Shown: positions 25,886 through 26,554, numbered from the stretch's first letter. The stretch is 64,000 nucleotides of DNA from Escherichia coli (GCF_003334355.1 NZ_QOWP01000015.1); one strand, 5' to 3'. Made by a program: numbers and translations. Notes: generated by a model not told the origin, from the sequence alone.

Positions 25886-26309
25886 TCGTTTATTATGCCA
25901 CAGAGAATCGGGAAATAACATCCCTTAACACTTGTTATGAGATAATTCTGTAATCCTCTTTGCTTCCTGAGTAATAACTTCCTGAGTGAATATTTAACCT
26001 GAGCTTGATCCTACACATACTTATTATGAATGATAAAATTCATTCAATTAATAACACATATATTAATTGCCGTTAAAACTAAAAACAGCATCAATAATCA
26101 ACGCGATATAATAAACCTGCCTTACATATCAACTGCGCCAGAGGTAGGATTGAAAACGCTCTCCTGATTTTCCAATTCATTTTCTGGATAAATAAATAAT
26201 TTATTTTTGTCACTATTATTTATGTAATCATCCTGTCAGGGAGAGGGATCTCAATTATCAATGCTTAATTACGTCATCATTTTGATGACATGAAACCGGA
26301 GCATTTTGC

Positions 26310-26471
26310 ATGGAAATTTCGTTTTCACCCAAACGTCTTGTTGTTGCTGTCGCCGCCGCTCTTCCTCTCATGGCCAGCGCAGCAGATACCCCGTCAACTG
26401 CCACCGCACGCAAAGGCTTTGCCGGATACGATCACCCAAACCAGTATCCACAGAACGCTGCAATTTATTGA
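26310..26471 (+). pseudogene. aslA: truncated arylsulfatase aslA remnant (signal-peptide region only, about 53 codons)
   Basis: ATG at 26310 encodes [53 protein letters not shown] then stop; spacing from glmZ 5' end matches the expected aslA start, but the ORF ends about 1.5 kb short of a full sulfatase. Confidence 0.6.
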
Positions 26472-26485
26472 ATTTGCACGATCAT

Positions 26486-26520
26486 GTAGGCCGGATAAGG
26501 CGTTTACGCCGCATCCGGCA
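26486..26520. repeat. REP element at the aslA-remnant / aslB junction
   Basis: gtaggccggataaggcgtttacgccgcatccggca, canonical REP palindrome. Confidence 0.8.
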
Positions 26521-26554
26521 ATCAACCGCAGGCGGCCACAAAATGGCCGCTTTT

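Follow-up and report, generated by a model that had tools for sequence, protein, structure and literature searches.

A 1,578-bp deletion that probably left only a pseudogene remnant of aslA beside an intact aslB in Escherichia coli

RESULTS AND DISCUSSION

Organization of the glmZ-aslB interval

The interval between glmZ and aslB in the window (the whole 64,000-nucleotide stretch of Escherichia coli DNA analysed here, from GCF_003334355.1, NZ_QOWP01000015.1) is only 669 bp long. Its left landmark is the glmZ sRNA gene (25679..25885, minus strand), which matched Rfam model RF00083 (GlmZ_SraJ) over its full length (model positions 1-214; 218.4 bits versus a gathering score of 60). To the right lies aslB (26555..27790, minus strand; TAA stop at 26555-26557), an intact gene for a 411-aa homolog of radical-SAM/SPASM anaerobic sulfatase maturases. 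Between the two is a plus-strand open reading frame (ORF) of 53 aa (26310..26471, TGA at 26469-26471), whose ATG has the same offset from hemY and glmZ as the start of aslA in K-12. This ORF is a composite. Nucleotides 26310..26448 (plus strand) correspond to nucleotides 1-139 of aslA, that is, 46 whole codons including the signal peptide, as established by AslA identity and a gapless alignment with K-12. They are followed by a single C at 26449, the junction base (a T at both breakpoints in every intact allele), and then by former aslA-aslB intergenic DNA (26450..26471, plus strand). Codon 47 straddles the junction, and the former intergenic sequence supplies its remainder, codons 48-53 and the TGA. 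Farther downstream on the plus strand are a surviving REP (26486..26520), hereafter REP2 of the ancestral two-REP arrangement, and a predicted stem-loop with a T run resembling an intrinsic terminator for plus-strand transcripts (26530..26556). An initial annotation of this DNA had placed the ATG at 26310, the end of the frame at 26471, the REP at 26486-26520 and the aslB stop at 26555 in a gap of about 670 bp, and all of these coordinates were confirmed. It had also described a 53-codon aslA stub; the truncated ORF does comprise 53 codons, but only 46 of them are aslA.

REP2 begins with GTAG (26486-26489), followed by an imperfect palindrome of two 14-nt arms (26490-26503 and 26506-26519) that are 86% complementary. 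It occurs three times in the window, counting two further near-identical copies (none expected by chance), and its 35-nt stretch explains a median of 24-28 matching places per genome. The GTAG, the imperfect palindrome and the many copies identify it as an E. coli REP. The hairpin at 26530-26556 has a 9-pair stem with six G-C pairs followed by TTTTAC, its T run overlaps the aslB stop codon, and it is also found in the intact TO6 and O157 alleles.

Several further features of the region varied between strains. Past the aslB promoter region, four tRNA genes cluster at 27940-28373 (minus strand; Pro, Leu, His and Arg in the K-12 annotation), and at this cluster O157:H7 has an additional tRNA-Leu and a diverged spacer. 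The best genome match to window positions 25600-27900 was strain 1094, which carries an IS150 between hemY and glmZ (570-1939 of its extracted locus, L003); the window is without an IS at that place.

Extent of the deletion and the two REPs

Alignment of window positions 25600-27900 with the corresponding MG1655 locus (L001) gave a two-block match separated by a gap of 1,578 bp. The left block pairs window 25600-26448 with L001 501-1349 (99.4% identity, gapless) and the right block pairs window 26450-27900 with L001 2929-4370 (97.6%). Synteny with the K-12 aslA-aslB locus (b3801/b3800) is the same throughout, including hemY, glmZ, the aslA start, aslB and the tRNA Pro-Leu-His-Arg cluster, and the flanks share 97.6-99.4% identity. 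In K-12, aslA is 1,656 bp long (L001 1211-2866), and window sequence from 26450 onward resumes at L001 2929, 63 nt beyond the aslA stop. The net loss relative to K-12 is thus 1,578 bp, made up of aslA nucleotides 140-1656 and 62 bp downstream, with a whole REP included. The initial annotation had put aslA at roughly 1.65 kb here in K-12 and proposed that about 1.5 kb was missing, and both estimates agree with these values.

The intact alleles of K-12, TO6, O157:H7 and BL21 have two REPs between aslA and aslB, which in K-12 lie within 158 bp of intergenic DNA. The lost element, REP1 (TGCCGGATGCGATGCTGACGCATCTTATCCAGCCTAC), is in the opposite orientation to REP2, and the right edge of the deletion (26449/26450) coincides with its 3' end (GCCT|ACAG). 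The earlier suggestion that the right edge sits at a REP therefore applies to REP1 only; the surviving REP2 is 37 bp away, downstream of the breakpoint.

Variation in this intergenic region extends beyond the deletion. K-12 and BL21 (L001 3003-3027) have GGCGGCCGCCGATTTC, 9 bp shorter, in place of the hairpin terminator GGCGGCCACAAAATGGCCGCTTTTTT found in the window (26530-26557), and their aslB stop codon is TAG where the window has TAA. In strain S9 (B2-like), the aslA-aslB intergenic region is 90 bp (L008 2791-2880) with a single REP that resembles the left arm of REP1 fused to the right arm of REP2. The two-REP spacer sequence is missing from about 1,500 genomes, indicating that REP content at this site is polymorphic.

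Coding capacity of the remnant

The first 46 residues encoded by the stub are identical to residues 1-46 of K-12 AslA at 45 of 46 positions (E = 1e-28). Together with the shared offset from hemY and glmZ, this bears out the earlier proposal that the frame is the true 5' end of aslA, and orthology is thus established both by sequence and by position. Full-length K-12 AslA matches the NCBIfam arylsulfatase model only from residue 83 onward and has its Ser-type formylglycine motif (SSPTR) at positions 136-140. The stub ends at residue 53, had no NCBIfam family match and lacks the catalytic domain with a (C/S)-x-P-x-R motif that defines a type I sulfatase. Because both the sulfatase domain and the formylglycine motif have been lost, the stub cannot be a sulfatase and, judged by its sequence, is a dead remnant.

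Frequency and annotation of the deletion allele

A 241-bp probe centred on the junction matched 1,729 of 5,426 complete E. coli genomes at ≥80% coverage, with sampled identities of 98.8-100%; genomes below this cut-off matched one half of the probe only. Longer junction probes raised the count to 1,730 genomes (32%), and the deleted 1,579-bp segment is kept in the other 3,696 (68%), so that the deletion and intact classes sum to exactly 5,426. This survey of aslA presence and absence, proposed with the initial annotation, shows that the deletion is not a strain peculiarity. Its carriers include O111:H8, O111:H2 and O26 strains, several ETEC isolates and ATCC 8739, and intact carriers include K-12, BL21(DE3), O157:H7, O55:H7, SE15 and APEC O2:K1. 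As a separate observation, IS1 insertions were seen in or near aslA in further genomes (H11, H101).

Published surveys have already recorded the resulting pattern. The gene was found in nearly all A, B2, D, E, F and G genomes and was missing from B1 (ST155, ST58 and ST156), C (ST410) and ST101 (PMC8844930); it was absent in all 16 B1 isolates of a Gambian collection (PMC7796664) and had a prevalence of 67% in a Peruvian collection (PMC12870134). Every deletion genome that we examined has this stub marked as a pseudogene by PGAP in RefSeq ("incomplete, missing C-terminus"). The deletion polymorphism is hence known, being both annotated and reported, and entire phylogroups are fixed or nearly so for it. 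The name that PGAP gives to the 138-bp remnant (26310-26447) differs between carriers, being "arylsulfatase" for alleles of B1 type and "hypothetical protein" for those of window type, and searches by product name consequently miss some carriers.

Junction variants and flanking haplotypes

The main junction reads CCAGTATC-C-ACAGAACGC, a string that was identical in all 13 genomes sampled from the main haplotypes. Intact alleles read TATC-T-GG at the left breakpoint and GCC-T-ACAG at the right, so both breakpoints lie directly 3' of CT. A clean join between the two CT sites is predicted to give TATCTACAG, and exactly this sequence was found in three genomes (EcPF16, KFu022 and Z1323PEC0010). 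One further genome, HH97 (GCF_028201635.1), has TATCCCCCACAG, with CCCC at the junction. These four differ at the junction base from the remaining deletion genomes, about 1,726 of 1,730, which have the C. We considered an intact allele with C at the lost-REP end as a source of this base and ruled it out, as none of 2,228 intact-allele probe matches (≥80% coverage) had a C at the corresponding REP1 position. A simple join thus does not account for the junction C; a T changed to C afterwards, or a single base added without a template, has to be assumed.

To compare backgrounds, we aligned 17 deletion alleles (the window and 16 genomes) with five intact alleles. The segment from the junction to 365 bp rightward (26449-26814) is common to nearly all deletion alleles, and an A at 26594 marks 15 of the 17 and none of the five intact alleles. 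Outside this segment the flanks differ. A B1-type left flank has C, A, T and T at 25886, 26086, 26316 and 26335 (e.g., O111:H8), and the window, 1094, EcPF16 and KFu022 have T, C, A and G at the same four sites, as in the intact TO6 haplotype. In these four, most of aslB is likewise of K-12/TO6 type; in the window this holds beyond 26814, and a B1 flanking haplotype is not found there. FAHZZU6724 and STS63-2-E have intermediate flank haplotypes. The identical junction within differing flanks, together with the linked A at 26594, points to a single origin followed by recombination, and the window may be read as a recombinant carrier of the common deletion. Its allele is also present in ATCC 8739, and from this and the flank haplotypes we infer that the window strain belongs to a phylogroup A lineage.

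EcPF16 and KFu022, with T at the junction, have the same flanks, including the A at 26594, as the window and 1094, with C; the T/C difference consequently arose within one haplotype. As a test of whether T or C is ancestral, these genomes were uninformative, since the haplotypes line up in a single chain, with a root possible at either end. The greater diversity of B1 flanks favours the junction C as probably the older state. HH97 and Z1323PEC0010 are singletons among the 5,426 genomes, and both of their flanks are near-identical to intact K-12 and intact TO6, respectively (1-4 mismatches per 1.3-1.7 kb). Set against intact TO6, Z1323PEC0010 has a clean CT/CT junction.

Origin and spread of the deletion

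These observations are very probably best explained by one old 1,578-bp deletion, of which the stub would be the pseudogene remnant, and which homologous recombination would later have moved between genetic backgrounds. The deleted form keeps the aslA promoter region, start codon, signal peptide and 46 codons, fused to former intergenic DNA that provides seven codons and a TGA. Since B1-type flanks are the most diverse, the origin may be placed in a B1/C ancestor. From there the deletion allele would have become fixed in the B1/C part of the species, and recombination would subsequently have carried it into some phylogroup A lineages, that of the window included. HH97 and Z1323PEC0010 fit a single origin awkwardly, as they would require very short recombination tracts.

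Replication slippage or illegitimate recombination is the most likely mechanism of the deletion. A direct repeat matching at 15 of 16 nt could have stabilised a misalignment: the copy in aslA (CTTTGCCGGATACGAT) ends 16 nt before the left breakpoint and that in REP1 (CTTTGCCGGATGCGAT) ends 22 nt before the right breakpoint. The score of this repeat was reached by only 4 of 3,000 randomly chosen pairs of 100-bp segments at a spacing of 1,580 bp in this sequence. The register of the repeat is 5 nt off that of the deletion (offset of 1,573 versus 1,578). Two more specific routes were set aside. In-register recombination at the TATC microhomology beside the repeat would have produced TATCCAGCCTACAG, which is absent from the genome collection (the best match was the HH97 variant). 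A long-range hairpin, in which the REP-like aslA site pairs with the 3' arm of REP1, was also considered as a route to excision, but the left arm is retained together with 16 nt beyond it, which does not suit a base-to-base excision.

The position of both breakpoints also raises the question of whether REP-associated enzymes acted here repeatedly. Under this reading, the deletion recurs site-specifically, with the domesticated REP-associated tyrosine transposase TnpA_REP (RAYT) cutting single-stranded DNA 3' of CT near the surviving REP and joining the ends, thereby excising the intervening 1.58 kb, or with REP-guided template switching. The E. coli enzyme cleaves single-stranded DNA at CT both 5' and 3' of REPs (PMC8266576), and in our alleles both plus-strand breakpoints are directly 3' of CT (TATCT|GG in aslA and GCCT|ACAG at the lost-REP end), and the GTAG of REP2 is on this strand as well. 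The exact CT join (TATCT-ACAG) exists in three genomes, and HH97 and Z1323PEC0010 are singletons whose flanks are almost those of intact haplotypes, as would be expected of fresh, independent deletions. If this were true, these two genomes would represent independent recent events and a natural case of REP machinery deleting a chromosomal gene. However, neither the C of about 1,726 of the 1,730 genomes nor the CCCC of HH97 is a clean CT join, and two of the three genomes with T (EcPF16 and KFu022) share the flanks of the window and 1094, which have C, including the A at 26594. A single crossover no more than 145 bp from the junction would explain Z1323PEC0010, a 2-nt microhomology is ordinary in illegitimate recombination, and the REP nearest to the left site is 1.6 kb away. 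We therefore regard recurrent excision as very unlikely.

It is extremely improbable that the short form is ancestral and that aslA was inserted or completed in the carrier lineages, even though some virulence-gene work describes strains as having "acquired" AslA (PMC11879602). The 46 codons of the stub share 98% identity with the beginning of intact aslA and give way directly to non-coding DNA, and at the very place of the short-form junction intact alleles carry a whole REP. The most diverged alleles sampled (S9, which is B2-like, O157:H7, BL21 and K-12) have a full-length aslA at this position, and its divergence follows that of the flanks (93-98%; the B2-like aslA segment is about 94% identical to K-12), as expected after long residence. 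The comparison of alleles thus indicates that intact aslA is ancestral and that the short form is a deletion, not the product of an insertion elsewhere. Nor does the stub seem to have become a new small gene, encoding a putative exported peptide of about 29 aa after signal-peptide cleavage; this we consider very unlikely. The promoter region and start codon are kept, the predicted signal peptide is complete, a terminator-like hairpin follows, and the ORF is open and of equal length in all sampled genomes with the main junction. Yet over a mere 162 bp, and in so young an allele, such conservation carries no information, and no family match was found. Its only polymorphisms are at codons 3 and 9 (the window-type stub has I at codon 3, where K-12 has F, and also differs at codon 9), and both are found in intact alleles as well, so that no change was found to be private to the stub. 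Moreover, its new C-terminal tail is altered in the genomes with T or CCCC at the junction. The preferred reading thus remains a single old deletion that left a pseudogene and was later spread by recombination.

aslB and other sulfatase genes

The window AslB scored 519.1 bits against the anaerobic sulfatase maturase equivalog TIGR03942 (cut-off of 349.45), with a CxxxCxxC motif at residue 21 and a SPASM domain (TIGR04085) at residues 282-371, and differs from K-12 AslB at seven amino acids. In all 16 other deletion genomes examined, aslB is likewise intact at 411 aa, with no PGAP pseudogene flag, so that the gene is uninterrupted in each of the 17 deletion alleles, that of the window included. 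Two of the changes in the window AslB are private, S362R (26705, in the SPASM domain) and T209M (27165), being absent from 21 other alleles, among them that of 1094, which is otherwise identical; the same comparison revealed no private synonymous change.

The ratio of nonsynonymous to synonymous change was higher in deletion backgrounds than in intact ones (pairwise dN/dS of 0.13-0.15 versus 0.08-0.09; summed pairwise counts of 570/1,147 versus 148/535), although recombination has shuffled aslB alleles between backgrounds and the ratios cannot be assigned to the period after the deletion. As a test of relaxed selection this comparison was consequently set aside, leaving room for some relaxed constraint on aslB.

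The initial annotation had called aslB an orphan maturase. Its integrity is plain, but "orphan" is too strong a word, holding only insofar as the adjacent gene has been lost: aslB and aslA are transcribed convergently rather than together, aslB is driven by a promoter of its own, and the paralogous sulfatase genes ydeN and yidJ are widespread. In K-12, the aslB promoter is bound by RcsB-P/GadE and belongs to the H-NS acid-stress regulon (PMC2984483). The persistence of aslB without aslA is thus accounted for by its being an independent convergent gene under its own regulation. AslB and YdeM have been termed "putative anSME proteins" (PMC8379841), and our literature search found no demonstration that AslA depends on AslB.

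Among the other sulfatase genes, ydeN is of Ser-type (SGPSR) and adjoins a second maturase homolog, ydeM, and yidJ is of Cys-type (CTPAR) with no neighbouring maturase gene in the K-12 annotation. The ydeM-ydeN pair was found in 5,323 of 5,426 genomes (98%) and yidJ in 5,114 (94%), frequencies at which most deletion carriers must have both. YidJ and YdeN may be other clients of AslB. In 2 of 25 evenly sampled genomes (H171 and H179), ydeM is interrupted by IS1 or IS2.

Implications and comparison with known systems

Lists of invasion or virulence genes include aslA, whose presence or absence is scored in many genome surveys, some of which count it as acquired (PMC11879602). The direction indicated by our data is the opposite, with aslA ancestral and its absence the result of one lineage-tied deletion (B1/C and recombinant A lineages). 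Because absence is tied to lineage, associations between aslA and disease would largely be phylogroup markers. To the known polymorphism, our analysis adds its structure (46 native and 7 read-through codons, with a whole REP lost), its frequency (1,730 of 5,426 genomes), the rare junction variants, and evidence that the deletion arose once and then entered phylogroup A lineages by recombination. The integrity of aslB in genomes without aslA also argues mildly that AslB may have work beyond maturing AslA. Such a role would fit the published link between aslB and the acid-stress regulon.

The window shares the junction, the 138-bp remnant, the surviving REP and the intact aslB with the common aslA-negative allele of B1/C, annotated as a pseudogene in RefSeq. 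It differs from that allele in being a mosaic, with a left flank and most of aslB of phylogroup A type (TO6, K-12).

The atsA and atsB genes of Klebsiella encode a Ser-type sulfatase and its radical-SAM maturase. K-12 AslA resembles Klebsiella AtsA in its Ser-type motif (SSPTR in AslA) and its signal peptide, and AslB fits the anaerobic maturase model. Unlike atsA and atsB, aslA and aslB are convergent and do not form an operon, and in the window the sulfatase has been destroyed while the maturase is kept.

With respect to the rearrangement itself, Shyamala et al. reportedly described in 1990 REP-mediated tandem duplications in Salmonella with a REP at the join point. The aslA deletion is like these in having one breakpoint at the edge of a REP, with the REP-like 16-mer in aslA as the short homology. 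It involves only one true REP partner, and its crossover lies 16-22 nt beyond the 16-mer and 5 nt out of register, which sets it apart from a simple REP-REP exchange.
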